A stretch of 64,000 nucleotides of DNA from an uncultured Cellvibrionales bacterium (GTDB lineage: Bacteria; Pseudomonadota; Gammaproteobacteria; Pseudomonadales; CAWVSB01), in NCBI GenBank assembly GCA_963933215.1, contig CAWVSB010000007.1, positions 50,773 through 114,772 of the forward strand, written 5' to 3'. Shown in pieces: positions 1,589 to 34,698 of this stretch. The position numbers were made by a program, and so were the translations under genes. The notes under the pieces are model-generated. The model was not told the origin of the DNA, did not search any database, and saw only the letters and a list, made by a program, of their open reading frames with translations. Numbering within the stretch: position 1 is the stretch's first letter; the number at the start of each line of letters is the position of its first letter.

Positions 1589-1681
1589 CACGGTGGCCAA
1601 GCAAGGCACTCACAACAAGAGAGGCTAGCACTGGCGGCAATTGAGCTAACCACTAACAAAGGTAACAGTGAAGCTGCCAAC

Positions 1682-3060: not shown

Positions 3061-3192
3061 GGCGGGGTTTCTCCGTATGTTTACTACTGTGTCTGTAATT
3101 TAGGACTAATTCTATTACACTACCACAGCTTTGATAAAAATTGGCCCGACATTTTTTAGGGATATTTAGCGTAATAATAAAAGGTAGTAAGA

Positions 3193-4758: not shown

Positions 4759-4802
4759 CTAAATGCTGGGGCTATAATAGCGCCACAATAATAATTTAAG
4801 CA

Positions 4803-6706: not shown

Positions 6707-6728
6707 TTTTATTTAACGAGCATAAAAC

Positions 6729-7118: not shown

Positions 7119-7127
7119 ATCTGCCTG
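7103..7127. terminator. Perfect 9-bp hairpin between the convergent yciA-like and dctP genes (possible terminator, no clear U-tract)
   Basis: CAGGCAGAT (7103-7111), a 7-nt loop, then ATCTGCCTG (7119-7127). It overlaps the thioesterase stop codon. Confidence 0.35.
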
Positions 7128-7133
7128 ATAGGT

Positions 7134-8267: not shown

Positions 8268-8292
8268 TTATTTTGTACTCTTATTTTTTTAA

Positions 8293-10443
8293 TTATATTG
8301 CTTGCAAGCCAGCATATTGCAGCACCAACCACTTGCTACCTTCGTTATCAAAATTGACTTGTACACGGGCGTTATCACCATGGCCTTCAACATTTAATAC
8401 TGTGCCTTCACCAAACACTTGATGGAATACCCGACCACCTAGGCTTATCCCCTGCTGTGGCTCAGTCTCGTCTGGCGCACCAAATAATACCGGTCTGGTA
8501 ATCTGAGCGCCAAGTCGGACTTCTTGTAAACATTCGGGCGGAATCTCGCGCAAAAAACGCGATGGCGCATTGAAGTTATCACTGCCGTATAAACGACGGC
8601 ACTCGGCATAACTAATGTATAATTTAACCATCGCGCGGGTAATACCGACATAGCACAAGCGTCGCTCTTCCTCTAGTCGCTCAGGATCTTCAGCTGACAT
8701 TTTATGTGGGAAAAGATTTTCTTCAACGCCGGCAATAAACACTGTATGGAACTCTAATCCCTTGGCCGAATGCAGTGTCATTAACTGCACGGCATCTTCA
8801 AACTCATCGGCTTGGGCATCACCCGCATCAAGGGCAGCAGTATCTAAAAACTGTTGCAGTGGCGTACCATTTTCATCTTCGTCCCAGGCAAAAGCCCTAG
8901 TGGCAACAACCAGCTCTTGTAAGTTTTCTACCCGCGCTTGGCTTTTCTCGCCTTTCTCATTGCGATGGAATTCTAATAAGCCAGAGGCGTCGATAATATG
9001 GTCAACCTGCTCGTGCAGAGGCAGCTCATTCGTGCCTTCAGTAAGGTCGGCAAGGAGCTGAAGAAAGTTACTAATGTTGCTGGCAGCCCTTGCAGGCAAA
9101 ATATTTTTCTCAACCATAGTGCTAGCCGACTGCCATAAAGACGCGCCATGTTCACGGGCAAACAACCGCAGATTTTCAACTGATTTAGCGCCTATGCCTC
9201 GCGTAGGGGTATTGATAACTCGCTCAAATGCTATGTCGTCGTGAGGGTTATTTAGTAACCGCAGGTATGACAAGGCATTTTTAATTTCTAACCGTTCATA
9301 AAAACGATGCCCACCGTAAACTCTGTACGGTACACCAGCGCGCAACAATGAGTCTTCTAGTACTCTTGATTGTGCATTGGAGCGATACAATATGGCGCAA
9401 TCACTTTTAGCGACCTCTTGGGAAGCTTGTTGAATTTGCTCAACGATAAAGTTAGCTTCATCGACTTCGTTAAAGCCGGCATACAGAGAAATTTTTTCGC
9501 CTTTTTCGCCTGCCGTCCACAGCTCTTTGCCAAGACGCCCTTGATTGCGAGAGATTACTTCGTTAGCAGCCTGCAGTATGGTTTCAGTCGAGCGATAATT
9601 TTGTTCAAGCTTGGTTATTTGAGTATCAGGAAAATCTTCACTAAAGCGCTGAATGTTTTCTATTTTGGCCCCGCGCCAACCATAAATAGATTGGTCGTCG
9701 TCGCCGACGGCGGTAACTTTGCAGTTATTGCCAGCTAACACTCTAAGCCATGCGTACTGCACCGCATTAGTGTCTTGAAACTCATCAACTAATAAGTGAC
9801 TAAAACGCTGTTGATAGTGCTCAAGTATTGCTGGTTTTTTCAACCATAGCTCATGGGAGCGTAATAATAACTCTCCAAAATCAACCAAGCCACCACGCTG
9901 ACACAACTCTTCATAGTGCTGATAAATTCGCACCATCGTCTTATGGTGTAAATCGCCCCAATCATCAATATGAGCAGCGCGTTTACCCTCATCTTTTTGA
10001 CTATTAATAAACCACTGTGACTGCCTTGGCGGCCATTGGGAATCATCTAGATCTAAGGCACGGGTGACTCGCTTTACCACTCGGAGTTGATCGTCAGAAT
10101 CTAAGATTTGAAAGTTCTCTGGCAGACCTGCATCCAGCCAGTGACTTTTTAACAAGCGGTGCGCCAAGCCATGAAAGGTGCCCACCCACATGCCTCGCAA
10201 ACTTGAGCCTTGTAGGTCTTCAATGCGATTACGCATCTCTTTAGCAGATTTGTTAGTAAAGGTTACTGCCATAATACTGTAAGGCGATACCTTCTCGGTT
10301 TGCATTAACCACGCAATGCGATGAACCAAGACGCGAGTTTTGCCGCTACCCGCACCGGCCAAAATAAGTTGATTGCCTGACTCAGCGCAAACCGCATTGC
10401 GCTGGGCATCGTTTAATGAGTCAATTATTGAAGTTACATCCAT
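8293..10443 (-). CDS. uvrD: DNA helicase II UvrD
   Basis: 716 aa with Walker A AGAGSGKTRVL, SF1 helicase motifs (DEFQDTN, TLHSAKGLEF) and a UvrD-type C-terminal tail. Confidence 0.9.
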   Translation of the reverse strand: MDVTSIIDSLNDAQRNAVCAESGNQLILAGAGSGKTRVLVHRIAWLMQTEKVSPYSIMAVTFTNKSAKEMRNRIEDLQGSSLRGMWVGTFHGLAHRLLKSHWLDAGLPENFQILDSDDQLRVVKRVTRALDLDDSQWPPRQSQWFINSQKDEGKRAAHIDDWGDLHHKTMVRIYQHYEELCQRGGLVDFGELLLRSHELWLKKPAILEHYQQRFSHLLVDEFQDTNAVQYAWLRVLAGNNCKVTAVGDDDQSIYGWRGAKIENIQRFSEDFPDTQITKLEQNYRSTETILQAANEVISRNQGRLGKELWTAGEKGEKISLYAGFNEVDEANFIVEQIQQASQEVAKSDCAILYRSNAQSRVLEDSLLRAGVPYRVYGGHRFYERLEIKNALSYLRLLNNPHDDIAFERVINTPTRGIGAKSVENLRLFAREHGASLWQSASTMVEKNILPARAASNISNFLQLLADLTEGTNELPLHEQVDHIIDASGLLEFHRNEKGEKSQARVENLQELVVATRAFAWDEDENGTPLQQFLDTAALDAGDAQADEFEDAVQLMTLHSAKGLEFHTVFIAGVEENLFPHKMSAEDPERLEEERRLCYVGITRAMVKLYISYAECRRLYGSDNFNAPSRFLREIPPECLQEVRLGAQITRPVLFGAPDETEPQQGISLGGRVFHQVFGEGTVLNVEGHGDNARVQVNFDNEGSKWLVLQYAGLQAI

Positions 10444-10559
10444 TGCGCTATTCTATCAGGCAAGAACATTCTAGGCACCGTAAATAGCGGTAAAGACTAG
10501 CAATGTTTTGCAGTGCAGTTAAACTAACGATAATTATTTTCAGCGGATATGACTTGTTT

Positions 10560-11420
10560 ATGCGCCATGCAAATTTACTTCAAAAAATTGGTCAAACTAT
10601 GGCCGACATGCGCAAGTCAGAACGCAAAGTGGCTCAGTATGTTTTAGCGCAGCCCAACGACGTAATTCATATGCGTATTGTCGATTTGGCTCAGGAGTCG
10701 ATGGTCTCAGAGCCAACGGTGGTTAGGTTTTGTCGTGCTTGTGGTTGCGATGGTTTTCAGGATTTTAAATTAGGTTTGGCCCAGCAATTAGCATCAACCC
10801 CCAGCTTTAGCCAGTTTGCCGTTGATACTAACGACTCGCCCATTGAATATGCCTATAAAGTTTTTGACGCGACCATTAATACTTTACAGCGCGTGCGTGA
10901 CTCCCTGGACCCGGCGGCATTGAGCGCTGCGGTTGATGCATTAAGCCAAGCCAGGCGTATCAGTTTTTATGGCTTTGGAGCTTCTGGTGCGGTTGCTCAA
11001 GATGCCCAGCACAAGTTTTTCCGCCTAGGTTTGGAAACTGTTGCCTATAACGACCCACATATACAAAACATGGCGGCGGTATCACTGCAGCCTGGTGATG
11101 TGGTGGTAGCAGTATCTCAAAGCGGGCGTACCAAAGCGCTTATTAATTCTATAGATTTAGTTAAAGCTGAAGGCGGTATTGTTATTGGTATAGCGCCAAG
11201 CGCTAGCCCTGTGGCTAACCGCTGCAGTATTGCTTTATGTATTGATGTTGATGAAGACACCGATAATTACGCACCACAAAGCTCACGCATTGCGCAGCTA
11301 ACGGCTTTAGATGCATTAGCAGTCGGAGTCTCGCAAGCTAATAGTGAGCAAATTACCGAGCACCTACAAAAGCTAAAACGTGGTTTAAGCAGTTTACGGC
11401 TGCCCAATGACAAATATTAA
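10560..11420 (+). CDS. hexR: RpiR/HexR family transcriptional regulator (HTH + SIS domain)
   Basis: ORF 10503..11420. From the ATG at 10560 the protein reads MRHANLLQKI...SERKVAQYVL...VSEPTVVRFCR...GFQDFKL, collinear with E. coli HexR as I recall it. Confidence 0.7.
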   Translation: MRHANLLQKIGQTMADMRKSERKVAQYVLAQPNDVIHMRIVDLAQESMVSEPTVVRFCRACGCDGFQDFKLGLAQQLASTPSFSQFAVDTNDSPIEYAYKVFDATINTLQRVRDSLDPAALSAAVDALSQARRISFYGFGASGAVAQDAQHKFFRLGLETVAYNDPHIQNMAAVSLQPGDVVVAVSQSGRTKALINSIDLVKAEGGIVIGIAPSASPVANRCSIALCIDVDEDTDNYAPQSSRIAQLTALDALAVGVSQANSEQITEHLQKLKRGLSSLRLPNDKY

Positions 11421-11509
11421 TAGCTGAGTGAAAACTTGTTCATCAATCACTTCCGACAGTTTTCAGGCGCTATAATTACTCCCTAGCTATAATAACTGCT
11501 GAGCCAACC

Positions 11510-12007
11510 ATGATTGAATATGATTACGTTAAAACCAAGCGCAGCGATGTTAAAGCTTTTCCGAGTGGCAAAGAAAAACAGATAAAAAAATTCATTAAAA
11601 TAATGACCAAAGTTAATGTTTGGGTGTTCAGAAAAACCAATGGTCGGTTAATGAAGAACTTTCCAGGTGGTTATCCTATTTGTATTGTCGGCTCCAAAGG
11701 CCGCAAGACCGGAGCAAGGCGTGAGATAGCATTAATTCATTTGCCGAAAGACGATAAGTTACTACTAGTAGCCTCCCAAGGTGGTATGGATACTAATCCT
11801 GTCTGGTATTACAACATTGCGGCCAATCCCGATATCGATGTAATGATTGGTGGGGTGGAAACTAAGATGATTGCTAGGCAAGTTGGGGATGATGAAAAGC
11901 AAGCGTTATGGCCACACTTACTTTCTTTATATCCAGACTTTGATGAATATCAGGCTAGAACTGACAGAAATATCCCAGTCTTTGAATGCACTAAAGTCGA
12001 CGCTTAA
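11510..12007 (+). CDS. DUF385 / deazaflavin-dependent nitroreductase family oxidoreductase (split beta-barrel)
   Basis: GRKTGARREIALIH...LVASQGG...NPVWYYNIAANPD...YPDFDEYQARTDRNIPVF matches the family signature. Confidence 0.8.
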   Translation: MIEYDYVKTKRSDVKAFPSGKEKQIKKFIKIMTKVNVWVFRKTNGRLMKNFPGGYPICIVGSKGRKTGARREIALIHLPKDDKLLLVASQGGMDTNPVWYYNIAANPDIDVMIGGVETKMIARQVGDDEKQALWPHLLSLYPDFDEYQARTDRNIPVFECTKVDA

Positions 12008-12933
12008 TTACCTTTTTCAAATAAAATATCGATACGTAATTCTAGCTCTGGATTTGGATTCCAGGAGTCCTCCCGCAGAAATCTGACCCGCGGATCCAAG
12101 GTTAAAAATATCCAATCTTTAAACAGCGGCAAACGATAATTAGCCGCTAGAAAATAGGTATTTAATCGAGGATTAGGTTGATTTGAACCCGTTACGCCAA
12201 TTGTAAACGAATGCCAGTTGCTGCCGGGAATATGCTCATACAAGGTAAAAAACTGGCCAATCTCTAATTCTTCATGCTGTTTTTGATATTGAGCCTCGGT
12301 GCTAATTCTTAGTTGGTAGTGTTCATTTAACTCAGTTAGTAAAAAATACTCTGACGATTCTCCCCAACCCTCTTCATGGAAATACCAAGCTTTTTGCTTG
12401 AAACCGTTAATCCAATTATCACTTAAATTAACGGTGATTTCCGCTTTTACCCTTGCGAAAGGATCTATCGGGTAGCTAAACTTTGCCCCCACTTGAGTGT
12501 CAAATTGAAAGTTTTTTGTCTCCCGCGTTCGCCCGATGCCCACGGTGGTAAAAGTATCTTGTTGGGTATCAAGTTTTTTATCTACTAAACTGCTTTGATC
12601 GTTGACATCGCTGTCGATCAACAACTTTAACTGCCGCTTGGTATTTGGAATATCAAGCTTACCGCGAATATTAACGTCTGTTTCCCAATCGCCGGATTTA
12701 GCAATGAACTGCTCTATGCTGATATTTACTCGGCTTTTATTATCGCTTGTGCTTTGCCCGTCAGATAACCAAGAATCAATATAGCGAGATGTCTCTAGCC
12801 AAGTTTGAGCTAGACTGTCACGCATCTTTTGAGCGCTATCCATGACCTTCTTGTCTTCATCGTTGGCGAACAAAGACCGCGGCATTAACATTAGTAATGC
12901 CCAACTAATAAGAACTATCAGGCTTCGCTTCAA
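12004..12933 (-). CDS. Uncharacterised secreted protein, possibly an outer-membrane beta-barrel
   Basis: 309-aa ORF with a signal peptide (MKRSLIVLISWALLMLMPRSLFA). The remainder is rich in alternating amphipathic stretches and aromatic residues. I recognise no family. Confidence 0.5.
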   Translation of the reverse strand: MKRSLIVLISWALLMLMPRSLFANDEDKKVMDSAQKMRDSLAQTWLETSRYIDSWLSDGQSTSDNKSRVNISIEQFIAKSGDWETDVNIRGKLDIPNTKRQLKLLIDSDVNDQSSLVDKKLDTQQDTFTTVGIGRTRETKNFQFDTQVGAKFSYPIDPFARVKAEITVNLSDNWINGFKQKAWYFHEEGWGESSEYFLLTELNEHYQLRISTEAQYQKQHEELEIGQFFTLYEHIPGSNWHSFTIGVTGSNQPNPRLNTYFLAANYRLPLFKDWIFLTLDPRVRFLREDSWNPNPELELRIDILFEKGN

Positions 12934-13001
12934 AGCATACCTTGATTATTATTTTATTTATAATAATAACCAAGTTAACTATTAACACAAGTAAATAACT
13001 G

Positions 13002-14831
13002 CTATTCGACAGTAACTGACTTCGCCAAGTTTCTCGGTTGATCTACATCAGTACCTTTTAAAAGTGCCGCATGGTAGGACAATAATTGCAGTGGAATGGT
13101 ATAAATTATTGGTGCAATAATATCTGGCGTATGCGGAATCGCAATCACCGATATACCATCTTCATCTTCAAACCCAGCCTCTTTGTCGGCGAACACGAAA
13201 AGCTTGCCACCTCGGGCCCTAACCTCTTCTAGGTTTGATTTTAACTTTTCCAGCAGCTCATTATTAGGCGCCACTGCTACCACCGGCATATCATCATCAA
13301 CTAACGCCAATGGCCCATGTTTTAACTCGCCGGCAGGATAACTTTCAGCATGGATATAAGAAATTTCTTTCAGCTTTAATGCCCCCTCCATCGCCACCGG
13401 CCACTGCACGCCACGACCTAAAAACAAAGCATGATGTTTGTCGGCAAAAGCTTTTGCCATTTGCTCTATTTTTTTATCTAACTTTAACGCCTCGCTAACC
13501 AAGTCGGGCAACTGATGCATTGCGGCTACAATGTCTTTTTCAGCATCAAGGGATAAACCATTACGCCTACCGAGCAACACTGTTAAAAGTAGTAGGGCAA
13601 CCAACTGGGTGGTAAATGCTTTAGTCGATGCCACACCAATCTCTGGCCCAGCTTCAGTCATTAAACACAAATCTGACTCTCTAACGAGAGAACTTTGCGC
13701 TACGTTACAAATGGCCAAAGTGGAGGTATAGCCAAGGGTTTTTGCTAACCGCAAAGCGGCTAAAGTGTCAGCAGTTTCGCCTGACTGAGAAATTGTCACT
13801 AGCAATGTGTTGTCGGTGACAACAAGCTTTCGATAACGGAATTCGCTAGCAACTTCTACTCGGCACGCGACACCTGCCACCCCTTCAATCCAGTACTTAG
13901 CGACCATAGCAGAGTGATAACTGGTTCCGCAGGCAACAATTTGTACTGCTTTAGTTTTGTCTAAGACAGTTTTCGCTTCAGTACCTAAAATTTCTTCTAA
14001 CACTCGATTACGGCTGATACGCCCTCTTAGGGTGTTAGCTAAAACAGTGGGCTGTTCAAAAATTTCTTTTTGCATGTAGTGACGATACTTACCCTTATCG
14101 GCATTGTCGGCACTGCCGGTCATTACTACAACGTCTCGGATCACCTTATTGTGTTGTGAATCTATAATGTCGTAACTCTGCGGCGTAATAATGGCCATAT
14201 CGCCTTCTTCAAGATAAACAAACCGATCAGTAACCTGGCGTAACGCTAGCTGGTCTGAAGCAATGAAATTTTCACCGATACCAATACCAATAACTAGCGG
14301 GCTACCAGAGCGTGCGCAGATAATAGTGTCAGGTTGATCAATAGAGATTACCGCTAAACCATAGGCCCCCTCTAGCTTAGCTACCGCAATCTTTAGCGCA
14401 CTAAGTAGGTCGTTACCTTCCCTTATTATTGAATCTAATAAGTGAACAACTACCTCGGTATCGGTCTGTGATAAAAACGCATAGCCTTGTTCAGTTAACT
14501 GATCTCTCAGTTGATTGTGATTTTCAATAATACCGTTATGCACTAATGCAATGCGGTCATTAGAACAGTGTGGATGGGCATTTATCTTAGACGGTTTACC
14601 ATGGGTGGCCCAGCGCGTGTGGGCAATACCACAGCTACCTATAATGGGGGTTTTAGCAATAGCGTCAGCTAGCATTGCTACTTTGCCTTTCTCTTTGGCA
14701 ACAGATAGTGCGCCATTTTCAATAACCGCTAAACCGGCTGAGTCATAACCCCGATACTCTAGCCGACGCAGGCCTTCAACTAAGATTTCCGATACTTCCC
14801 GTTTGGCACTTGCACCAACAATTCCACACAT
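13002..14831 (-). CDS. glmS: Glutamine--fructose-6-phosphate aminotransferase
   Basis: 609 aa with the MCGIVG N-terminal nucleophile, two SIS domains and a C-terminal VTVE. Confidence 0.95.
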
Positions 14832-14840
14832 AGTATTTTC

Positions 14841-16208
14841 CTAGTCCTGTTTTTTAATTGGTCGCTGCCAGCCATCCAAATTACGTTGCTTTGCTCTCGC
14901 AATGGACAATTGATTCTTTTCGATATCCTTGCTGATCACAGAGCCAGCACCAACTGTTGCATTTTCACCAATTGAGACCGGTGCAACTAATGCGCTGTTT
15001 GAGCCGACAAAAACTCCGTCTCCTATATTTGTCACATACTTATTAACACCATCATAATTACAGGTAATGGTGCCAGCGCCAATATTGACGTCTTTTCCTA
15101 TGTTGGCGTCGCCCAAGTAGGTTAAGTGACTTACTTTTGAGCCCTCGCCAATATTTACTTTTTTGGTTTCGACAAAATTACCTACTTTAACCCCGACGGC
15201 GAGATTAGAGCCTGGCCTTATCCTAGCAAACGGTCCGATGACGCAATCATCGGCAATGACCGCGTTTTCAATAACAGTGTTAGCTTTAATTTCTACATTG
15301 TTGGCAATTATCGTGCCTGTAATAACACAGTTAGGACCAATGGTTACATTGTCTCCGATACTGACACTGCCTTCAAACACCACATTAATATCTATCGCGA
15401 CATCACTGCCAACTGTTAGCTCACCGCGTATATCTAAGCGATTTGGATCGCGTAAACTAACGCCAGCAAGGAGTAATTTAGTGGCCTGCTCAGTTTGAAA
15501 TTGCCGCTCTAAATTAGCCAGCTGTACTCTGTCATTGACCCCTTGAACCTCGGCCTCAGTCGCTGGATGAAACGCTTTAACAGTCACCCCCTCAGCGGCA
15601 GCCATGGCAATAATATCTGTTAAATAATACTCGCTCTGCTTATTGCCGTTTGATAAAGCAGGCAGCCAAGTATTAAGGCGTTGCGCGGGCACGGCCATGA
15701 TACCGGTATTAGTTTCAGTTAATGCCAATTGTTCAGAGCTTGCTTCTTTTTGCTCAATAATTGCGTTAACACTGTTGTTTTGATCCCGCAATATCCGGCC
15801 ATAGCCATCGGGATTACTAAGATCTACTGTTAACAAAGACATTTGATCACCGCTTACATCAGCCAGCATTGCTTTAAGTGTGCTAGCTTTGATTAACGGC
15901 ACGTCACCATATAAAACTAATACCGTAGAATTATTACTGATGTTCGGCATTGCCTGCGCAACTGCATGACCGGTACCCAGTTGCTGTGTTTGCTTAACCC
16001 AGTTTATTGATAGATCTTTAAAGGCGGCTTCTACGTCTTCTGCTTTATGCCCTACAACCACGTGAATGGCACTTGGCTCCAATTCAGATGCCGCAGAGAT
16101 AACATGGCCTAGCAATGAGTTAGCGGCCAAAGTATGCAATACCTTCGGCTTATTGGAGCGCATTCGAGTGCCTTTACCGGCGGCCAAAATAACAACTTCT
16201 AGACTCAT
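14841..16208 (-). CDS. glmU: Bifunctional UDP-N-acetylglucosamine pyrophosphorylase / GlcN-1-P acetyltransferase
   Basis: 455 aa with LAAGKGTRM and a C-terminal hexapeptide-repeat (LbH) domain. Confidence 0.95.
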   Translation of the reverse strand: MSLEVVILAAGKGTRMRSNKPKVLHTLAANSLLGHVISAASELEPSAIHVVVGHKAEDVEAAFKDLSINWVKQTQQLGTGHAVAQAMPNISNNSTVLVLYGDVPLIKASTLKAMLADVSGDQMSLLTVDLSNPDGYGRILRDQNNSVNAIIEQKEASSEQLALTETNTGIMAVPAQRLNTWLPALSNGNKQSEYYLTDIIAMAAAEGVTVKAFHPATEAEVQGVNDRVQLANLERQFQTEQATKLLLAGVSLRDPNRLDIRGELTVGSDVAIDINVVFEGSVSIGDNVTIGPNCVITGTIIANNVEIKANTVIENAVIADDCVIGPFARIRPGSNLAVGVKVGNFVETKKVNIGEGSKVSHLTYLGDANIGKDVNIGAGTITCNYDGVNKYVTNIGDGVFVGSNSALVAPVSIGENATVGAGSVISKDIEKNQLSIARAKQRNLDGWQRPIKKQD

Positions 16209-16350
16209 ACTATTCTCTTTTATATTTAGTTAAATAGCTGTTTTTGACAGATTATACTGGATATTAGGCAATAGGCGCATTTTTGTCTCAGATAACGAAT
16301 AGCCGATTGATCGCGCGGCGTAATCAGCTTGAGGTATAACATGCAGGCAC

Positions 16351-16377
16351 AAAAAAGGCGGCTAATGCCGCCTTTTT
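16351..16377 (-). terminator. Rho-independent terminator after atpC (bidirectional architecture)
   Basis: GGCGGC (16357-62), loop TAAT, GCCGCC (16367-72), flanked by an A6 run and a T5 run. Lies 13 bp downstream of the atpC stop. Confidence 0.7.
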
Positions 16378-16389
16378 ACTTGGATATAT

Positions 16390-16815
16390 CTATTTACCCA
16401 TTTTTTTCTTCAATGCCCGCACTGCTCTTATTTGAGCAGCTGCCTCGGCTAGTCTAGCGGAGGCCAACGTGTAGTCAATTTCACTACTTTGATCAGCTAA
16501 ATCAGCTAAAGCTCGCTTTTGCGCTTCAACAGCGGCAGCTTCATCCATGTCATCAGCGCGCAGTGCTGTATCAGCAAGAATGGTGATAGTGCCTGGTTGT
16601 ATTTCTAAATAACCGCCAGAGACATAAAATATCTCTTCTTCACCACCTTGAGTAACAACACGAACAGGCCCAGGCTCTAGACCCGTGAGTAACGGAGCAT
16701 GACCGTAGCTAACACCTAAGTCACCTAAAGATGCGTTGGCTACAACTAGCTCTGCTAATCCAGAAAAAATCTCTTGCTCTGCACTAACGATGTCACAATG
16801 AATTGTCATTGCCAT
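16390..16815 (-). CDS. atpC: F1 ATP synthase epsilon subunit
   Basis: 141 aa, last gene of the canonical atp operon order. Confidence 0.95.
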   Translation of the reverse strand: MAMTIHCDIVSAEQEIFSGLAELVVANASLGDLGVSYGHAPLLTGLEPGPVRVVTQGGEEEIFYVSGGYLEIQPGTITILADTALRADDMDEAAAVEAQKRALADLADQSSEIDYTLASARLAEAAAQIRAVRALKKKMGK

Positions 16816-16869
16816 AATAAATCTCTCTTATAACTCGCTTACTAAAGTCTTACTGACTTGTATTAAAAG

Positions 16870-18312
<1,443 letters not shown>

Positions 18313-25330: not shown

Positions 25331-25966
25331 TTAATCTAAAGCGATGGCGACCAGATGTCGCTCAGCGGCTAAGCCAGGTACTTTCAGTTCATGCACTGCT
25401 GTGACTTTATATCCTGTTGGTAATTCACTCAACTCTTCTGTTGGATAAACTCCTTTCATTGCCAAAAACAGCCCCTTGTTTTGCAGTAAATGATTTGTCT
25501 TTGCTAACATATCAGTTAGCGATGTAAACGCTCGTGAAGTTACTGCGTCATATTTTTTTTCAGCCGCTAGCTGTTCTGCCCTTTTGTTTAACACCGTAAT
25601 ATTGGATAACCCTAAATGAGTAACAACATGCTGCATAAACCGTGTTTTTTTGCCATTGCTGTCGACGGTGGTAATGGCGGCCATAGGGTAACAAATTGCC
25701 AATGGAACACCCGGTAGCCCAGCGCCGCTGCCAATATCTATTATAGACTCCCTACCTGCAAAAAATGGCACTACCGACAAACTATCTAAAATATGCTTAA
25801 CCATCATTTCGCCTTCATCACGGACAGCAGTCAGGTTATAAGCCTTGTTCCAATGGGAAAGTAATTTAACATAATCCACGAGCTTTTTTTTCTGTTCACT
25901 GTCTAAAACTAACTGCAGTTGCGCAACGCCATGTTCTAACAGCGCTGACAAATTATTATCAAGCAA
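25331..25966 (-). CDS. rsmG: 16S rRNA (guanine527-N7)-methyltransferase RsmG (GidB)
   Basis: 211 aa with the SAM motif IGSGAGLPG. Overlaps the mnmG stop by 8 bp. Confidence 0.9.
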
Positions 25967-27845
25967 TCTTACGCTCCAGTAGTCCGCGTTTTTTCAATGA
26001 TATTAACAACAGTGATATTGCTGCCGGCGTAATACCTTGAATCCGCGACGCCACCGCCAATGTTGCTGGTTTAGTAGCCATTAATTTTTGTTTTACTTCG
26101 TTCGACAAACCTTCTATTGATTGGTAGTCAAAGTCCATAGGTAATATCGCTGTCTCATATTTTTTCAAGCGCCCTATTTCTTCTTGTTGTCGATCAATAT
26201 AACCGGCATATTTTGCAGCAATTTCTAGCTGTTCAACTACTTGCTCATCAACCAAGGCTTGGCCTTTCAAACTTGCTACGTCTGCATAACTCACGCCAGG
26301 CCGGCGCAGTAAATCCATTAAGTTGTACTCACGACTAATTGGTTTTTCAATCAACTGGTTAATAACGTCAGCTTCTGGAGTTTTAGGTTGAATCCAAGTG
26401 CTTTTTAAGCGCGTGGTTTCTTGCTCTACTGACTCTCGCTTGTTACTAAAATATTGCCAACGCTGGTCATCGACTAAACCCAGCTCTCTTCCTATCTCGG
26501 TTAGGCGCGTATCGGCATTATCTTCGCGTAGTGACAATCGATATTCTGCCCGCGAGGTAAACATACGATAAGGCTCTGTGGTACCCATAGTAATCAAATC
26601 ATCAACCAACACGCCCAAATATGCTTGGTCGCGGCCTGGATACCAAGCATCTAACTCTTGACTGCGCCTAGCAGCATTTAGACCGGCTAGCAAACCTTGC
26701 GCAGCGGCTTCTTCATAACCAGTGGTACCATTGATTTGCCCGGCAAAAAATAAACCTTCGATAAAACGTGTTTCTAAACTGTGTTTTAAATCTCGCGGAT
26801 CAAAAAAGTCATACTCAATGGCGTAACCAGGTCTGGTGATATGAGCGTTTTCAAAACCTTTAATCGATCGCACTAGATTTATTTGTACATCAAACGGTAA
26901 ACTTGTTGATATCCCATTGGGATATAACTCATGTGTATCTAAGCCTTCTGGCTCGATAAATATTTGATGTGAATTTTTGTCAGCAAAGCGATGTATTTTG
27001 TCTTCTACTGATGGGCAGTAACGCGGACCAACGCCATCAATCACCCCAGTATACATTGGTGATCGATCTAACCCGCCGCGAATTATATCGTGGGTTTTTT
27101 CATTGGTATGAGTTATCCAACAACAGACTTGTTCAGGATGATCGTCTACCGAACCTAAGTAAGACATTACCGGCAATGGCGTGTCACCCCACTGCTCTTC
27201 TAATTCTGAAAAATCGACTGACTTGGCATCTATCCGTGGTGGCGTACCTGTTTTTAAACGGTTAACTCGAAACGGTAATTCACGCAGTCGATCAGCTAGA
27301 GCGATTGACGGTGGATCGCCCGCTCGTCCTCCAGAGTGATTCTCTAAACCTATGTGGATTTTTCCACCCAAGAAAGTACCTGCGGTCAATACCACTGAGT
27401 CGGCATAAAATTTCAAACCCATTTGAGTCACAACACCAACAACTTTGTCTTGTTCGATAATTAAATCGTCAACAGAGTGCTGGAATATTTGTAACTGCTT
27501 TTGGTTTTCTAATATTCCACGAATAGCGGCTTTGTACAACACGCGGTCAGCTTGAGCGCGGGTTGCTCTTACTGCAGGGCCTTTACGCGAATTCAACACT
27601 CTAAATTGGATACCGCCTTTGTCGGTAGCTGTTGCCATAGCGCCGCCGAGTGCATCAATTTCTTTTACCAAATGGCTTTTTCCAATTCCACCAATAGCAG
27701 GGTTACAAGACATCTGCCCTAAGGTTTCGATGTTATGAGTTAGCAAGAGCGTAGTCACACCCATTCTGGCACTAGCTAGCGCTGCTTCAGTGCCGGCATG
27801 GCCGCCGCCAATAATTATAACGCCGTAACGAGTTGGGTAATTCAT
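25959..27845 (-). CDS. mnmG: tRNA uridine 5-carboxymethylaminomethyl modification enzyme MnmG (GidA)
   Basis: ORF 25959..27854. The ATG at 27845 gives [22 protein letters not shown], a typical MnmG N-terminus. Confidence 0.95.
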
Positions 27846-28252
27846 AGTGCACACATGGCTATTTTTAAAAGGGCAGGCAGTATAGGGGCTGCTGAAAAAA
27901 TGAGCAAAGTAACTTTATATTTAATTTTTTTTGTCGTTTATTTATTAGTTACTTATATATATATAGTTATTAGGATATAGAGTAATAAAGAATTAGTTAT
28001 TATTAGTCAGCACAAATTCAGTTGATAAGTAATTAATAATTATTAAAATCAATACCTTAGGTCAATGATAACTACATACATAAGCCCAGTGTTTGAATGT
28101 GATTTAGCTGTTACACGGCTGTGTACTGTTTTAGTTTTTTTTAGGCCATTATAATAGGCTTTAAGTTATCAACTGATTTACACACATTTTATGCACTAGG
28201 TTATTACTTGCTTATTAGTACTGAATTGTAACCCCTGTTAAATAAATAGCTG

Positions 28253-28261
28253 TGTGGATAA
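28253..28261 (-). promoter_or_regulatory. Perfect DnaA box (TGTGGATAA, the complement of TTATCCACA) in the AT-rich spacer upstream of mnmG
   Basis: Read directly at 28253-28261. Imperfect boxes lie at 28176-28184 (ATTTACACA) and 28166-28174 (TTATCAACT). Confidence 0.6.
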
Positions 28262-28360
28262 CTATAGGGGAAAGCTGTGTTATTGCTGTAGAGATGCTCT
28301 TACTTAACGGTGCAAAAACTTGAAAGCACTTTTCACGCAAATACTAGAAATGAAAATTAC

Positions 28361-28398
28361 AAAAAAGCCCTATACAATAAATTCATTACTTAGGGCTT
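28361..28398 (-). terminator. Rho-independent terminator after the FG-GAP lipoprotein gene
   Basis: On the minus strand: stem AAGCCCTA, an 18-nt loop, stem TAGGGCTT, then T6. Begins 22 bp downstream of the stop codon at 28421-28423. Confidence 0.6.
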
Positions 28399-28420
28399 TA
28401 TTATTTCCATATTCTAAATA

Positions 28421-30256
28421 TTAGTACAAATAAACAGCGCCGGCAGAATCTGCAGAGTTATCCGCTTGGTCACCATTAATACCATTAGCGTTACTATCTT
28501 CACCTGCAGCAACAACAGCTAATGTATTTCCATCCCCATTTAAGCTAACCCCAGAGCCAAAAAAATCATTGTCTTCAGTATTACTGGCTTTGATATAAGC
28601 TTGCTGAACCCAAATATCACCTGTGCGGCTAAAGGCATATACTGCACCTGGATCATTTCCTGAGCTGTTTGCTTGGTCACCATTTATACCAGTGGCATTA
28701 CTATCTTCACGAAACGCTCCAACGGCTAATGTATTGCCATCACCGCTTAGGCCAACTTCATTTCCAAAATGCTGTCCAGAAGCCATATTATTACTAGCTT
28801 TAATATAGGCTTGCTGCGACCAAGTAGTATCTGAGCGGCTAAAAATATACACAGCTCCTGCGGTAAATATATCATTATTACTCTGGTCACCATTAATCCC
28901 TGTAGCGCTACTGTCTTCACCTGCCGCGCCGACTGCTAATGTATTTCCATCAGTGCTTAAGCTAATATCCGAAAACCCGTCCCTGGCTCCACTATTGCTA
29001 GCTTTAATGTAGGCTTGCTGGACCCATGCAGTAACTGCTCGGCTAAAGATATACACAGCGCCTGAGTTAATTGCCGAGTTATCGGTTTGGTCACCATTAA
29101 TACCAGTGGCGATACTGTCTTCAGAAGTAGCGCTAACCGCTAAGATATTTCCATCACCACTCAAGCTAACTTCTCCACCAAATAAATCTTCAGTTTCAGT
29201 ATTACTCGCTTTTAAATAAGCTTGCTGGGTCCAGGCAGTACCCGTGCGGCTAAAGATATACACAGCCCCTGCATCAGTTGCCGAGTTATCAGTTTGGTCA
29301 CCATTGATACCGGTAGCGTTGCTATCTTCAACTGGAGCGCCAACCGCTAAAGTACCCCCATTGCTGCTCAGACTAATGCTAATGCCAAAGTTGTCAAAAC
29401 TCTCAGTATTACTGGCTTTTACATAAGCTTGCTGGGTCCAGGTAATTCCCGTGCGACTAAAGATATACACAGCGCCAGCGGCATCTGCCGAGTTATCGGT
29501 TTGGTCTCCACCAATATCGGTAGCATTACTGGCTTCACCATTGGCACCAACTGCTAAGGTATTGCCATCATCACTTAAGCTAACACTTCTACCAAAATTG
29601 TCAGTTGAGCCAAATACACCCGTCGCTTCAGTATTACTAGCTTTAATATAGGCTTGCTGAGCCCAAGTAGTATCGGCATCGGCGCGGCTAAAGATATAAA
29701 CAGCGCCAGCATTAATAGTGGAGTTATCGGCTTGGTTACCATTAATACCAGTAGCGTTACTGTCTTCAGAAGCAGCAATCGCTAGCGTATTACCGTCCTT
29801 GCTTAGGCTAACACTAGCCCCAAAAGAGTCATGGGTTTCACTATTACTGGATTTAAAATATCCAATGCTAGCGACTAATGAATCACTGACTGAGATAGTG
29901 GTAGAGTTGGTACAAGCATTACCAGTGCATGTTTGTAGAATATACTGAGCATTAAACCGTTTGTATAAAGGGGCAGTAATGCTAGTAGTTTGAGTCCCTT
30001 GAGGAATAGCACTCCCCACTTGGTTAAAACCAGAGTTACTATCTGGATTTTCTAACAAACGATATTCTGTTGCATCGGGAATATCAGTCCAACTGAAGGT
30101 GAATAATTTTGTTTGTTCAAAACTAAGGCTTAAGGCAGCAGCCCTACTAATTGCTGTTGTATCTGTTGCTGGCGCGTTACTGCCGCCCCCACCCCCACCG
30201 CCACATGCACTTATAAAAATAAAGCTAGTTATAATAATTACAAACTTATTTATCAT
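28421..30256 (-). CDS. Lipoprotein with an N-terminal Ig/Fn3-like region and seven FG-GAP-type repeats (predicted 7-bladed beta-propeller)
   Basis: 611 aa. The lipobox ISAC (Cys18) is followed by Gly7. Seven ~69-aa units follow, with the pattern AYIKASNTE..D.FG.SVSLS.DGNTLAVGA..EDSNATGINGDQ.DNS...AGAVYIFSR. Confidence 0.8.
   Translation of the reverse strand: MINKFVIIITSFIFISACGGGGGGGSNAPATDTTAISRAAALSLSFEQTKLFTFSWTDIPDATEYRLLENPDSNSGFNQVGSAIPQGTQTTSITAPLYKRFNAQYILQTCTGNACTNSTTISVSDSLVASIGYFKSSNSETHDSFGASVSLSKDGNTLAIAASEDSNATGINGNQADNSTINAGAVYIFSRADADTTWAQQAYIKASNTEATGVFGSTDNFGRSVSLSDDGNTLAVGANGEASNATDIGGDQTDNSADAAGAVYIFSRTGITWTQQAYVKASNTESFDNFGISISLSSNGGTLAVGAPVEDSNATGINGDQTDNSATDAGAVYIFSRTGTAWTQQAYLKASNTETEDLFGGEVSLSGDGNILAVSATSEDSIATGINGDQTDNSAINSGAVYIFSRAVTAWVQQAYIKASNSGARDGFSDISLSTDGNTLAVGAAGEDSSATGINGDQSNNDIFTAGAVYIFSRSDTTWSQQAYIKASNNMASGQHFGNEVGLSGDGNTLAVGAFREDSNATGINGDQANSSGNDPGAVYAFSRTGDIWVQQAYIKASNTEDNDFFGSGVSLNGDGNTLAVVAAGEDSNANGINGDQADNSADSAGAVYLY
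28424..29863 (-). repeat. Tandem coding repeat, about 207-bp period, seven copies, within the FG-GAP gene
   Basis: The recurrent string GCGGCTAAAGATATACACAGC (with variants) appears near 28626, 28835, 29039, 29246, 29453 and 29683. Plus-strand shadow ORFs starting MRLK(I/A)YTAP recur at 28623, 29244 and 29451, offsets that are multiples of 207. Confidence 0.85.
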
Positions 30257-30323
30257 GAGTTTTCCAATATAGTTTAAAAAATATGGGTTGTATTGTTTCT
30301 AATTATACTAGTTAAAAGCGATA

Positions 30324-31703
30324 CTATTTTCCTATGCAAAAGCTTGAAAAGATCTTTCCGAGCAAATCATCAGCACTTAGTTGACCAGTAATTTCACCCA
30401 GCGTTTTTTGTGCTTGGTACAAGTCATCGGCTAATAACTCTCCTGCACCATGATTATTTAGTTGGGATTTTCCTTGCTGTAAATAATCCAAGCTTCTTTC
30501 CAAAGCATCTAAATGCCGGCGCCTAGCAGTAAACGTTCCTTCGGCGGCAGTATTATAACCCATGATTTTTTTAAGATGATCAGTTAGTTGCTGTAGGCCT
30601 AGTTTGGCTTTAGCTGATAGTTTTATCTGCACAACTCCGCTAATTGTCACCATGCCAGGCTCCGTGCCAGCTAAGTCACATTTATTACTAATAACAGTGA
30701 CGTTATTTGGCAGTGGTAAACCGATAGATAAACCGGCCCAAAGTTTGTCTATTTCAGTTTCTTGCTCACAACTTGAATCAACAACAAGTAATACTTGATC
30801 AGCTTGTTCTATTTGATCAATTGCTCTGGCAATGCCGATTTCTTCAACAACGTCTGGGTTATCTCTAAGGCCAGCAGTATCGATAATATGCAGCGGCATA
30901 CCATCAAGCAGTATTTCTTCTTTTAATACATCACGAGTGGTGCCAGCAATATCTGTCACTATGGCGCTGTCTTTACCAGCTAATGCATTAAGTAAACTAG
31001 ACTTACCGGCATTTGGTTTGCCTGCAATAACAACAGTCATCCCTTCGCGAAGTAAAGCGCCTTGTTTAGCTTGTTGTAATAATTGTATTAATAATTCTTC
31101 AATAATATTTAATTGGCTACTGACATGGCCATCGGCTAAAAAGTCGATTTCTTCTTCGGGGAAATCAATTGCCGCTTCGACGTAAATACGTAGCTTGGTT
31201 AGTTGCTCAACCAAATTATTTATTTGTTGTGAAAACACACCTTGCAGCGAGCGAATAGAATTACGCGCAGCTTGAATAGAAGACGAATCAATTAAATCAG
31301 CAATCGCTTCGGCTTGAGTTAAGTCTATTTTGTCATTTAAAAAAGCCCGTTCGCTAAACTCTCCAGGGTTAGCCAATCGTGCACCTAAGCGCAGGGTTTC
31401 TTTTAATAGCATATCAAGAATAACTGGACCGCCATGGCCTTGCAGTTCTAGGACATCTTCGCCGGTAAAAGAATTCGGTCCAGGGAAAAATAAAGCGATG
31501 CCTTGATCGACAACGACAGCGTTGTCATCGCCATCAATACAGGCATAAAAGTCGCCATAATGGGCGCTGCGGGGAGTTAGTTTTTTATTGGTTATAACTA
31601 AAGCGATATCTTTAGCTAAGGGGCCAGAGATTCGAATAATCCCAATACCACCTCGACCGGGTGGTGTGGCTAGAGCAGAAATTGTATCAAAGTGATCAAT
31701 CAT
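30324..31703 (-). CDS. mnmE: tRNA modification GTPase MnmE (TrmE)
   Basis: 459 aa with the G-domain [12 protein letters not shown] and the C-terminal CIGK motif. Confidence 0.95.
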
Positions 31704-31732: not shown

Positions 31733-33418
31733 CTATTGTGCAGCAGCCGCTGCGGCTTCAATTTGGCGAGTGATCATCCACTGCTGCAAAATTGACAAGA
31801 TGTTGTTCACACACCAATACAATACCAGGCCAGCTGGGAACCATAAAAAGAAGAAAGTAAAGAAGATTGGCATAATCTGCATAACCTTTGCTTGCATTGG
31901 ATCTGGTGGCGGTGGATTAAGTTTTTGCTGAATAAACATACTCACACCCATAATCAGCGGCAATATGTAGTATGGATCCATAGTTGACAGATCTTGTATC
32001 CAACCTAGCCATGGCGCATGACGTAACTCTACGCTTTCCATTAATACCCAATATAGCGATATAAACACAGGCATCTGGATAAGTATCGGTAGGCAGCCAC
32101 CAAGTGGATTTACTTTTTCTTTTTTGTATAACTCCATCATGGCTGCAGATTGCGCTTGCTTATCATCCGCATGGCGCTCTCGTATTTCAGTCATTTTGGG
32201 AGTGACCAAGCGCATTTTTGCCATTGAGCGATAACTGGCGGCGGACAAAGGATAGAACAGTAACTTAACAAACATGGTGAGGAAAATAATTGACCAACCC
32301 CAATTGCCAACATAACCATGGATAAAGGTCATAATCCAAAATAACGGCTGTGCAATCCACCACAACCATCCGTAATCGACAGTCAGTTCTAAGCCTAATG
32401 CGATTGCCTCTAGGCTTTCTTGATCTTTAGGGCCAGCATAAAACCGACTTTCAATAGTTTCTACGCTGTGTGGTGCAACCGTTACTGCGGGGCTGATATA
32501 ACGAATAAAATTGAAACCGTCACTGTTTACTTTGGTTGAATAAGCGTTGGTGACATCAACTGGTGGAATCCACGCTGAGATAAAATAATGCTGAACTATT
32601 GATAGCCAACCATTAGTGACACTTGCTTTAAACGGCTCATCTGCTAGATCAGAAAAAGTTGTTTTAATATAAGGTTTTTCTTCTGTGCGGGTAGCAACAC
32701 CTAAAAATGGTTGCATCCCCATGCCGGTGGTATCGGCTGCGGGGTCTTCGCTGCTGTCACGTTTTAGTTGAGCGTAGAAGTTGGCAGTCCATTGCTCATC
32801 GCTGTTGTTTTCAATAATATATTGTTGTGTGACTAAGTAACTGTTGGCAGTAAAAATAAAGCGCTTAGTAATATAAGCACCGTTGCTATCGGTAAACTTT
32901 AAATCAACATTTAAAGTTTCTCTGCCATTTAAATTATAGTCGCGAACAGCGCTGCTAAATAAAGGTTTACCATTTGCTGTGTCGGTGCCGTTAGGACCAA
33001 TTAACCCACTTTGGGCGATGTAGGTTCGACGTGAATTTTGCTCAAGAAGGACAAAGGGATTTTCTTTTTCGTCAAGTTTAGCTAAATGCTTTGGTAACAA
33101 GACACTTACAATATCGCCCCCGTTTGGGTCGATGCGCATTATTAAGGTGCCCGTTGTTACAGTAATTAAATTAGTACTAACCGGCGCTACCGTTGATTGG
33201 CTTGGCGCCACTATCGGTGCATTTAATACAGGCGTATCGCTATTACTGTTAGTTGCAATATCGCGGGGTACTTCGCCAGTATTTTGATAGCTCTCGATCG
33301 GCACTTGGTTAGCATCTAACAAAGCTTTATCGGCAGCTTTAAAATCAGTCCACTCGTTAACCAATATTAGTGAGACCGCAATAATGGCCCCGATAATGCT
33401 ATAACGGATCAGATCCAT
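31733..33418 (-). CDS. yidC: Membrane protein insertase YidC
   Basis: 561 aa with a large periplasmic domain and a conserved C-terminal 5-TM core ([16 protein letters not shown]). Confidence 0.95.
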
Positions 33419-33695
33419 GGGTATCTATACACCTATGCTTATGTTGATGTGAATATTCAGGTACTGGGTCGAGACCACCGTCATTAAATGGATGGCAACG
33501 CAGTAATCTTCGAAGGGTTAAATAACAGCCTTTTAAAAACCCAAAACGGCCGACTGCAGTTTGGGCATAAGAAGAACAGTTAGGGTAGAAGCGGCAATGG
33601 TTGCCTAGTAGCGGACTAATAAAGTAGCGATAAAATGCGAGCAGACACAATGCTACCTTAGCGGCTAGCCCAGGCTTGTCGGTTTTACTTAACAC
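33399..33695 (-). CDS. yidD: Membrane protein insertion efficiency factor YidD
   Basis: ORF 33399..33734 contains [18 protein letters not shown] and CHPF..GG.DPVP. The start is uncertain: GTG 33695 is chosen over ATG 33734, which would overlap rnpA by 46 bp. Confidence 0.8.
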
Positions 33696-34063
33696 ACCGA
33701 TTTCTCGGTGGCTCGTCGAATTAATCTTTGCCACTGTTTTTCCAGTATTCGATTAAAGCTAGGGTTATCTAAGCCTCCACATCCCGATCTAGCAAGCACT
33801 ACAATATCTAAGCTAGGTAAATTATCAGTTTGGAGTCTAAAGCTTTCTCGTATCTGTCGTTTCAGTCGATTTCTTGTTACAGCTAATTTGACATGTTTTT
33901 TAGCAATAACCAGCCCCAATCTAGATTGAGACTGTTGGTTAAAACGGGCAAGCAATAATAGCTCGGGACATGATGTCTTTACTTCGGCCGAAGAGAAGAC
34001 GAATTGAAAGTCTTTGGCTGTCAGTAGGCGTTTCGATCTAGCAAAATTAAGTCCCGTGACCAT
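33689..34063 (-). CDS. rnpA: RNase P protein component
   Basis: 124-aa basic protein containing [12 protein letters not shown], positioned between rpmH and yidD. Confidence 0.9.
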
Positions 34064-34091
34064 GCTCTAACCAGCCAGTTTTATGGCTTAA

Positions 34092-34226
34092 TTAGGCAGA
34101 AAGACGCTTGCGTCCTTTAGCTCGACGACGGTTAATTACCGCTTGTCCGCCTTTAGTGGCCATACGTGCACGGAAGCCGTGAGTACGTGCGCGCTTTAAT
34201 ACACTAGGTTGGAATGTTCTTTTCAT
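34092..34226 (-). CDS. rpmH: 50S ribosomal protein L34
   Basis: Not in the ORF track because it is under 60 aa. My manual translation gives [44 protein letters not shown] (44 aa plus TAA). Confidence 0.95.
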
Positions 34227-34393
34227 AGCTATTACTCGGTATTTGTCAGCATTACTTAGTGTAATACTAGCCTTAAAAAAATGAGCGCGAATTTTAGAGA
34301 ATTAACTACCAAATATCAATGCCCTTTTTTAATCTCTTGTCATGTCACTTCAGATACAAAGGATAATTAATACAAATTGCCCCTAGAAACAAC

Positions 34394-34402
34394 TTATACA
34401 CA
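34394..34402 (+). promoter_or_regulatory. DnaA box TTATACACA (perfect to TTATNCACA)
   Basis: Read directly. Embedded in the 16-bp direct repeat AACTTATACACAGGTT (34391-34406). Confidence 0.75.
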
Positions 34403-34415
34403 GGTTAAATTAAAC

Positions 34416-34424
34416 TTATACACA
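34416..34424 (+). promoter_or_regulatory. DnaA box TTATACACA (perfect to TTATNCACA)
   Basis: Read directly. This is the second copy of AACTTATACACAGGTT (34413-34428), 22 bp after the first. Confidence 0.75.
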
Positions 34425-34527
34425 GGTTTTTATAAGATAGGTTTTAGTAAATTTAAATAGCACTACCCCATTTTTATATTTTTTTAAGATACTGATTTAT
34501 ATGGAAATAAAATAAAAACAAAATATT

Positions 34528-34536
34528 TGTGGAAAA
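34528..34536 (-). promoter_or_regulatory. DnaA box, relaxed consensus (TGTGGAAAA, the complement of TTTTCCACA)
   Basis: Read directly. Fits TTWTNCACA. Confidence 0.55.
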
Positions 34537-34546
34537 CTTTTTAGGA

Positions 34547-34555
34547 TGTGGATAA
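34547..34555 (-). promoter_or_regulatory. Perfect DnaA box (TGTGGATAA, the complement of TTATCCACA)
   Basis: Read directly. Confidence 0.75.
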
Positions 34556-34698
34556 CCTACGTCATTCGGTCTTTTTGACCTTGTTTTTAACATTTTTTTA
34601 AAAGTCAGCGCAAATATCTTTATATTAAGTGCTACGGCTTTAATAAATATAAAAATATAAGTAAGGAGTGACATTAAGTCACATTAAAAGGGGTAGAC

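Follow-up and report, generated by a model that had tools for sequence, protein, structure and literature searches.

The 64,000-nucleotide stretch analysed here, which we call the window, comes from an uncultured marine gammaproteobacterium of the Cellvibrionales (contig CAWVSB010000007.1, positions 50,773 to 114,772) and carries the gene order dnaA / rpmH-rnpA-yidD-yidC-mnmE-ORF-mnmG-rsmG-parA-parB-atp. The open reading frame (ORF) between mnmE and mnmG encodes a 611-amino-acid predicted lipoprotein of the Pfam family FG-GAP_2 (PF14312). Comparison with two sister lineages, represented by the contigs L091, L092 and L095, shows that this gene was inserted at the 3' end of mnmE, and the predicted structure of its product leads us to propose that it is a tethered, seven-bladed binding module of the cell envelope. 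The features of the locus are as follows.

30324..31703, minus strand: mnmE (trmE/thdF), the tRNA-modification GTPase gene (TrmE_N, MnmE_helical, MMR_HSR1), ending in FCIGK-stop; its 3' end is the insertion target
~30317..30363, minus strand: left target copy, the functional mnmE 3' end plus ~7 nt past the stop (blastn, L091 9208-9390 = window 30496-30317); similarity to the empty site of the sister breaks off at ~30317
30257..30323, minus strand: AT-rich spacer of 67 bp between mnmE and the ORF, with insert DNA from ~30316 downward, a lone TATAAT hexamer and a weak GGA ribosome-binding site
28326..30316, minus strand: inserted segment, 1,991 bp by BLAST boundaries, holding one gene and its own terminator
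28421..30256, minus strand: FG-GAP_2 lipoprotein gene, 611 aa (ATG-started ORF, Pfam, homologue search, AlphaFold2 model)
~28358..28399, minus strand: intrinsic-terminator-like hairpin found by folding, with a 9-bp outer stem AAAGCCCUA/UAGGGCUUU and then a T-run
~28293..28340, minus strand: right target copy, a decayed relic of the ancestral mnmE 3' end (…TTTCAAGTTTTTGCACCGTTAAGTAA…; blastn, alignments)
27855..28292, minus strand: ancestral mnmE-mnmG spacer, 77-79% identical to the sister lineages, with a conserved perfect DnaA box at 28253-28261
25959..27854, minus strand: mnmG (gidA)

A gene inserted at the 3' end of mnmE

The insertion into the mnmE 3' end is real. The L091, L092 and L095 lineages share the gene order of the window over the available DNA and have an empty site without the FG-GAP_2 gene: in L091 and L092 mnmE is followed by 455 bp and then by mnmG, and the L095 contig ends 217 bp past mnmE, inside the spacer. 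Collinearity with the window spans 17 kb of L091 and 2.6 kb of L095 at 82-86% nucleotide identity (the nearest MnmE relatives in the protein database, P0127 and P0126, are 93% and 94% identical in amino acids). In blastn alignments L091 departs from the window at a single break, with its nucleotides 1-9390 matching window 39710-30317 and 9355-17380 matching window 28325-20302 (~82% identity); on the right side of the insert L091 9355-9981 corresponds to window 28325-27700 and L095 2381-2632 to window 28334-28083. L091 nucleotides 9355-9390, which comprise the last 26 nt of mnmE with the stop codon and 10 nt downstream, align on both sides of the insert and are thus used twice, so the window must hold two copies of the mnmE terminus. 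The functional copy ends …TTTTGCATAGGAAAATAG and the relic reads …TTTTGCACCGTTAAGTAA; the latter follows directly on the terminator of the ORF, continues in register into the ancestral spacer and is identical to the sister sequence in 36 of 43 nucleotides. L095 shows the same two-sided relationship.

Across 80 further related loci, collected by scanning genome contigs for MnmE (closest 65% MnmE identity), tblastn detected no FG-GAP homologue within 10 kb of mnmE. This result and the empty site in the two nearest lineages bear out the claim of the original prediction that the gene is an insertion, and the comparison of the mnmE-mnmG interval across relatives that it proposed finds the gene not to be universal at the locus, as an ancestral gene would be. 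At least ten metagenome contigs encode an identical protein, each time in this context, and the 1,991-bp segment is 99.9-100% identical across the six metagenome contigs examined. On one contig of the same species (L003 8554-9933) mnmE is called as two ORFs of 48 and 362 aa, probably through a frameshift or an assembly error.

The insert contains no other coding ORF: the remaining ORFs are antisense artefacts of 60-76 aa, and Pfam finds only FG-GAP_2. No paralogue of the gene is present inside the window, and Rfam at its gathering threshold returned no match in the whole window. As originally described, 67 bp without a terminator separate the gene from mnmE, a terminator-like hairpin follows it and both flanks are AT-rich. 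The 67-bp spacer (30257-30323) is 23.9% GC; no terminator-like site was found on its minus strand, and a sigma-70 scan of it revealed no promoter apart from the lone TATAAT, with promoter and terminator counts at shuffle expectation. The downstream spacer (27855-28420, 566 bp) is 29% GC compared with 43.6% for the whole window, and the hairpin at ~28358-28399 folds at -17.3 kcal/mol (z = -3.0), a value reached by 0 of 200 shuffles.

The original prediction regarded this locus as one of the most conserved and held that in Pseudomonas it contains at most a small hypothetical gene; neither statement survives a comparison of relatives. Among the 80 loci the spacing between mnmE and mnmG ranges from 0.4 kb to >10 kb, with 0.4-0.6 kb in most Pseudomonas genomes, ~4.5 kb in others, 1-8 kb in Neptuniibacter, Amphritea, Marinobacterium, Oceanospirillum, Microbulbifer, Marinomonas and Kangiella, and >10 kb in Halomonas. 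The cargo that occupies the slot in relatives includes a Fic-like protein, a major facilitator superfamily (MFS) transporter, a ChrR cupin, a metallo-beta-lactamase, a TonB receptor with a hybrid kinase, and thioredoxin 2. Salmonella genomic island 1 (SGI1) and its variants integrate in the last 18 bp of thdF/trmE and are flanked by imperfect 18-bp direct repeats, of which the distal one is the original gene end (PMC3285670). Variable spacing, unrelated cargo and a published attachment site together identify the slot as a known hot spot and not as frozen core.

Duplicated mnmE ends are also found in Halomonas ventosae (29/30 nt; L045 11403), in H. denitrificans (28/30 nt; L054 11496), in a Pseudomonadales metagenome-assembled genome (MAG) with a CobW-family GTPase gene between the copies (26/30 nt; L083 12714) and in Endozoicomonas acroporae with AbiEii-type cargo (~16/18 nt; L032 14493). 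These duplicates resemble scars, or small cargo without an integrase, at the trmE attachment site. The insert described here resembles SGI1 in its position at the mnmE end, in its imperfect direct repeats of the mnmE terminus and in having the far repeat beside the original downstream DNA. However, SGI1 spans ~42 kb, encodes int/xis and has 18-bp repeats, whereas the present segment is 2.0 kb long, with one cargo gene, no recombinase and a decayed repeat of ~36-48 bp. Among the hallmarks of SGI1-type islands it has the 3'-end insertion with direct repeats and lacks an integrase/excisionase of its own and mobilisation genes. Since it has neither integrase nor inverted repeats, the insert is not a functional SGI1-type island; it is at most the remnant of an island, or else arose at this hot spot by a different recombination.

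In the history that we favor, a single-gene segment of ~2.0 kb would have entered the mnmE 3' end in this species and duplicated ~36-48 bp of the mnmE terminus; the functional copy would have stayed to the left of the insert, and the copy to its right, beside the old mnmE-mnmG spacer, would be a decaying relic. The most likely route would be site-specific or illegitimate recombination at an attachment hot spot that overlaps the conserved FCIGK-stop end of mnmE; because no recombinase remains, the segment would now be fixed. Several observations weigh against parts of this account. The left-right repeat is by itself little better than shuffled sequences (score 25; highest shuffle score 29), and what gives it weight is that the sister sequences are collinear. 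Neither an integrase or excisionase nor terminal inverted repeats were found in or beside the insert, so that the repeat is the sole pointer to an att-type mechanism. The GC content of the gene (43.6%) and its GC content at third codon positions (GC3, 0.315) equal the host values; there is therefore no compositional sign of foreign origin, a line of argument that we rejected, and the event is not compositionally recent. Finally, a gain in the window lineage appears to be the most parsimonious history and is only mildly favored, since the two empty-site lineages are more closely related to each other than to the window (89.5% as against 84.7-86.1% nucleotide identity).

This last point bears on a different history, in which the common ancestor of the three close lineages already carried the gene and the sister clade lost it by recombination between the direct repeats, making the empty site secondary. 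The flanking repeats would permit such a precise excision, one loss would be enough for lineages that form a single clade, and the host-like GC and GC3 and the decayed relic argue against a very recent insertion. Even so, we regard an ancestral gene as unlikely: it requires one gain and one loss as opposed to one gain alone, the slot of an outgroup with 67% MnmE identity holds an rlmA-like methyltransferase gene, and the 80 further relatives have no FG-GAP gene there. An insertion is required under either history. For an uncultured marine bacterium, the locus provides a clean natural example of a filled and an empty site, in which a single gene was gained at the 3' end of mnmE. It poses no challenge to current understanding, the slot being a known and frequently used hot spot and the gene ordinary accessory cargo.

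The FG-GAP_2 protein and its family

The inserted gene specifies the following segments.

30203..30256, minus strand: signal peptide with lipobox ISAC, residues 1-18, Cys18 being the predicted lipidation site
30182..30202, minus strand: seven Gly codons (GGC GGT GGG GGT GGG GGC GGC), the start of a disordered tether, residues 19 to ~35
29864..30151, minus strand: Fn3-like beta-sandwich domain, residues ~36-131 (alignment, AlphaFold2, profile matches)
28424..29863, minus strand: predicted seven-bladed FG-GAP_2 beta-propeller, residues 132-611 (Pfam, repeat analysis, AlphaFold2, Foldseek)

The leader, MINKFVIIITSFIFISAC, has a basic residue, then a hydrophobic run and then the lipobox I-S-A-C; with Cys18, ISAC satisfies the motif rule [LVI][ASTVI][GAS]C at the close of an N-terminal hydrophobic segment. 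These features predict an exported lipoprotein with a Sec signal and lipidation at Cys18, and the Gly at position +2 predicts sorting to the outer membrane. The length of the ORF, its lipobox and the Gly7 tract at 30182-30202 are exactly as given in the original prediction. Most of the 37 full-length homologues that we aligned to define the family architecture have a lipobox-like xxxC, usually LxAC, followed by a Gly/Ser-rich tether. In the AlphaFold2 model residues 1-32 are disordered, with predicted local distance difference test (pLDDT) values below 50.

The model places an all-beta module after the tether (residues ~36-131, with the sandwich core at ~43-122), and W56, C110 and C115 of this ~95-aa domain are invariant across the homologues; a disulfide between C110 and C115 is probable. 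A profile of the N-terminal domain matched two PDB entries, 3mpc_A, annotated as an 'Fn3-like protein' (E=5.6e-4), and a module of 5g56 (E=0.016), and Pfam ChitinaseA_N matched weakly in 13 of 21 members (best E 0.0018, under the cut-off). The 3mpc profile match and the weak ChitinaseA_N matches make the label Fn3-like reasonable yet weakly supported, and together with the beta-sandwich in the model they lend the same degree of support to the Ig/Fn3-like segment that had been placed after the Gly tether.

The rest of the protein matches FG-GAP_2 in seven stretches (150.2 bits against a cut-off of 23, E=1.7e-44). The GAVY anchors of the seven repeats are spaced 77, 69, 69, 68, 70 and 69 aa apart, and the blades share 56-77% identity in protein and 66-74% in DNA, where they form a repeat family (D3) of 7 copies. 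The AlphaFold2 model, built on the alignment of the 37 homologues, has a mean pLDDT of 87.7 and a predicted template modelling score (pTM) of 0.85; its propeller consists of 28 strands, or 7x4, with the N-terminal strand 132-134 serving as the fourth strand of blade 7 in a velcro closure. The top Foldseek matches in the PDB are integrin alphaV (7y1t_A, E=2.8e-11, TM 0.47/0.53) and then the alphaL and alpha6 headpieces (5e6r_A, 7ceb_A), followed by generic WD40 and Gbeta propellers, and all matches are seven-bladed. The model thus predicts with confidence a closed seven-bladed propeller that resembles those of integrin alpha chains. Seven FG-GAP repeats of ~69 aa had been predicted and are confirmed, with units of 68-77 aa, and the structural model that had been suggested as a check of the propeller fold returns a closed propeller. 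At the sequence level phmmer found no match to the 611-aa protein in the PDB, and a full-length family profile gave a sole match, integrin alpha6 (E=0.085); the FG-GAP_2 protein is therefore without a solved homologue.

Calcium-binding loops like those of integrins had also been anticipated, and here the data point the other way. A regular-expression search for the cation motif Dx[DN]xDG (DxDxDG) gave 0 matches in the 611-aa protein and none in 36 of the 37 homologues. Of the two Pfam families that had been named for the check, PF14312 is found with the score given above and PF01839 (FG-GAP) has no match at E<=1. The loop between strands 1 and 2 is a short SxDGNT. A 16-residue loop between strands 2 and 3, EDSxATGINGDQxDNS, is conserved in each blade (seven matches), as is, in the alignment, the loop KASNTxxxD that leads from strand 4 to strand 1 of the next blade. 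In the integrin topology the 2-3 and 4-1 loops make up the ligand-binding top face. By analogy, the EDSxATGINGDQxDNS and KASNTxxxD loops would lie on the ligand-binding top face of the propeller.

The family to which this protein belongs is very large. The word-indexed protein search returned at least 8,000 matches, and an exhaustive search of 1.84 billion cluster representatives recovered 50,194 proteins at E<=1e-3 and 10,548 at E<=1e-30. The 37 aligned homologues share a lipobox, a Gly/Ser tether, a ~95-aa Fn3-like domain and seven blades that end abruptly at GAVYLY; with its lipobox, tether, Fn3 domain and seven near-identical blades, the window protein is a well-defined representative of FG-GAP_2. 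The same full architecture, at 48-63% full-length identity, is found in PF14312 proteins of Microbulbifer, Paucimonas, Acidovorax, Burkholderiales and Sandaracinaceae, but none of the homologues examined adjoins mnmE, and the copy in the window is species-specific. The same type of blade also makes up giant proteins (4,000-7,842 aa; P0246-P0248, P0301, P0341), in which as many as 20 propeller stretches were matched separately.

Homologues are named in the databases 'integrin' or 'FG-GAP repeat protein' or carry evident mis-annotations. A full-text literature search for PF14312 found no paper on function and no functionally characterised member, and a 2021 survey lists it among the repeat families without known structure (PMC8078820). 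The statement in the original prediction that bacterial members have no assigned function accordingly holds for PF14312 and not for the wider FG-GAP/VCBS group, in which Bap1/RbmC have been characterised. NCBIfam models gave only noise, far under their cut-offs, when compared with the 611-aa protein, and no PADLOC anti-phage family matched it at E<=0.01.

The genomic contexts of homologues are diverse: one lies by BrxR/WYL, SNF2 and Abi_2 genes, one by DUF2397 and SNF2, and one between a P450 gene, an IS6-like remnant and a tRNA, with others among housekeeping genes. These contexts suggest that the FG-GAP_2 family travels in the flexible genome. Homologues of this kind, beside defence-island-type genes or beside an IS6-like transposase remnant and a tRNA, were noted at L088 1-7244, at L097 1-5116 and at L096 622-1458 and 3298-3508. 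Six homologue contexts (P0006, P0022, P0088, P0054, P0108 and the cluster of the window protein itself) have no neighbour gene in common and, with no conserved partner gene, the neighbourhood gives no clue to function.

Possible roles at the envelope

The explanation that in our judgement best accounts for these data jointly, with a probability of about 60%, is that a 2.0-kb gene insertion at the mnmE end supplies an exported, tethered, seven-bladed propeller that acts as a multivalent binding platform of the envelope. The protein would be exported by Sec, lipidated at Cys18 and sorted to the outer membrane through the Gly at +2; a flexible Gly/Ser/Thr tether would then be followed by an Fn3-like spacer domain and by a highly symmetric propeller. 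Each blade would present the same polar loops, and the protein could thus serve as a multivalent lectin- or adhesin-like platform for a repetitive ligand, such as an envelope polysaccharide. By analogy with characterised propellers, an envelope-anchored multivalent binding module is its most likely role. The blades are as similar to each other (56-77%) as orthologs are, and each of them therefore appears to be under the same constraint and to perform the same task, which suits a repetitive ligand.

VCBS/FG-GAP propellers typically bind carbohydrate or protein (PMC9218822), and the propeller of Bap1/RbmC binds Vibrio exopolysaccharide directly (PMC10102183). These Vibrio cholerae proteins are the functional model that we adopt here: they are secreted, have an FG-GAP/VCBS-type propeller with velcro closure and bind exopolysaccharide, probably in a multivalent manner. 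They differ from the window protein in having eight blades as well as beta-prism and mucin-binding domains and in not being lipoproteins, and the only sequence-level PDB match of the window protein is integrin alpha6. It also counts against a role in ligand binding that the neighbourhoods of homologues, with no conserved partners, provide no evidence for a ligand.

The membrane topology admits a different role, that of a periplasm-facing outer-membrane lipoprotein that functions as a BamB-like scaffold for protein-protein contacts and not as a surface lectin or adhesin. Gram-negative lipoproteins are for the most part oriented towards the periplasm, and the generic WD40 and Gbeta propellers are also strong Foldseek matches. 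BamB (cited in PMC9218822) likewise combines N-terminal lipidation with a beta-propeller in the Gram-negative envelope. It differs in its eight PQQ-like blades, in being encoded by a conserved core gene with defined partners and in lacking an Fn3 spacer. We consider such a scaffold somewhat unlikely for the window protein, since a lineage-specific gene of flexible regions without conserved partners is unlike core envelope machinery, a long tether with an Fn3 spacer typically belongs to proteins that are extended and reach outward or are carbohydrate-active, and seven near-identical blades suggest a repetitive ligand.

The likeness to integrin alpha propellers (PF01839; 7y1t_A, 5e6r_A, 7ceb_A) extends to seven four-stranded blades of ~60-70 aa, FG/GA signatures and velcro closure, and PMC3192720 describes bacterial propellers of the integrin type in which every blade has a Ca2+ site. 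With integrins as the best structural matches and integrin alpha6 as the sole PDB profile match (E=0.085), one could picture a Ca2+-dependent, integrin-type adhesin with Ca2+-binding hairpins in its blades. However, identity to integrin alpha is 12-14% at TM ~0.45-0.53, and the window protein is without Dx[DN]xDG hairpins, a beta-subunit partner, thigh/calf domains or a transmembrane helix, having an N-terminal lipid anchor instead. The missing motif here and in 36/37 homologues, the short SxDGNT loop and the lack of a PF01839 match at E<=1 make a Ca2+-dependent adhesin improbable. More improbable still, in our view, is an enzymatic propeller, such as a polysaccharide lyase of the PL11 type or a seven-bladed hydrolase of the lactonase type. 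The VCBS/FG-GAP supercluster does include the RGL11 lyases, and a putative 6-phosphogluconolactonase propeller (4qrj) is among the Foldseek matches, but the same residues are conserved in all seven blades, leaving no unique active-site blade, and neither Pfam nor NCBIfam assigns a CAZy-type or enzyme family.

A bolder version of the binding-platform proposal, which we regard as improbable, would see the insert as a minimal recombinase-less cassette at the mnmE site, with the seven-fold EDSxATGINGDQxDNS loop as a glycan or cation site that replaces DxDxDG, and with expression aided by gene dosage near the origin and read-through from mnmE. Were it true, it would supply a biochemical function for a family of >50,000 uncharacterised clusters. 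Should the top-face loops prove to bind glycans, tens of thousands of proteins could be annotated.

The origin region near the locus

The perfect DnaA box TTATCCACA in the ancestral mnmE-mnmG spacer (window 28253-28261) is kept in L091 (~9420-9430) and L095 (~2455-2465), and it could belong to the control of the mnmG promoter or to an origin-related element. The spacer between rpmH and dnaA (34225-34698) is ~30% GC and has DnaA-box-like sites at 34394, 34416, 34528 and 34547; the switch in coding strand and the change of sign in GC skew also fall in it. This spacer is likely to be oriC, which would lie ~4-6 kb from the inserted gene. A position of oriC in the mnmG spacer was judged less likely, with one DnaA box there compared with four in the rpmH-dnaA spacer. 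Neither AT-rich spacer (mnmE-mnmG, rpmH-dnaA) contains a GATC site. In the same region the listed yidD ORF overlaps both rnpA and yidC (33399-33734; 33689-34063), and the small rpmH gene (44 aa, ~34090-34224) is present, though it falls under the threshold of the ORF list.

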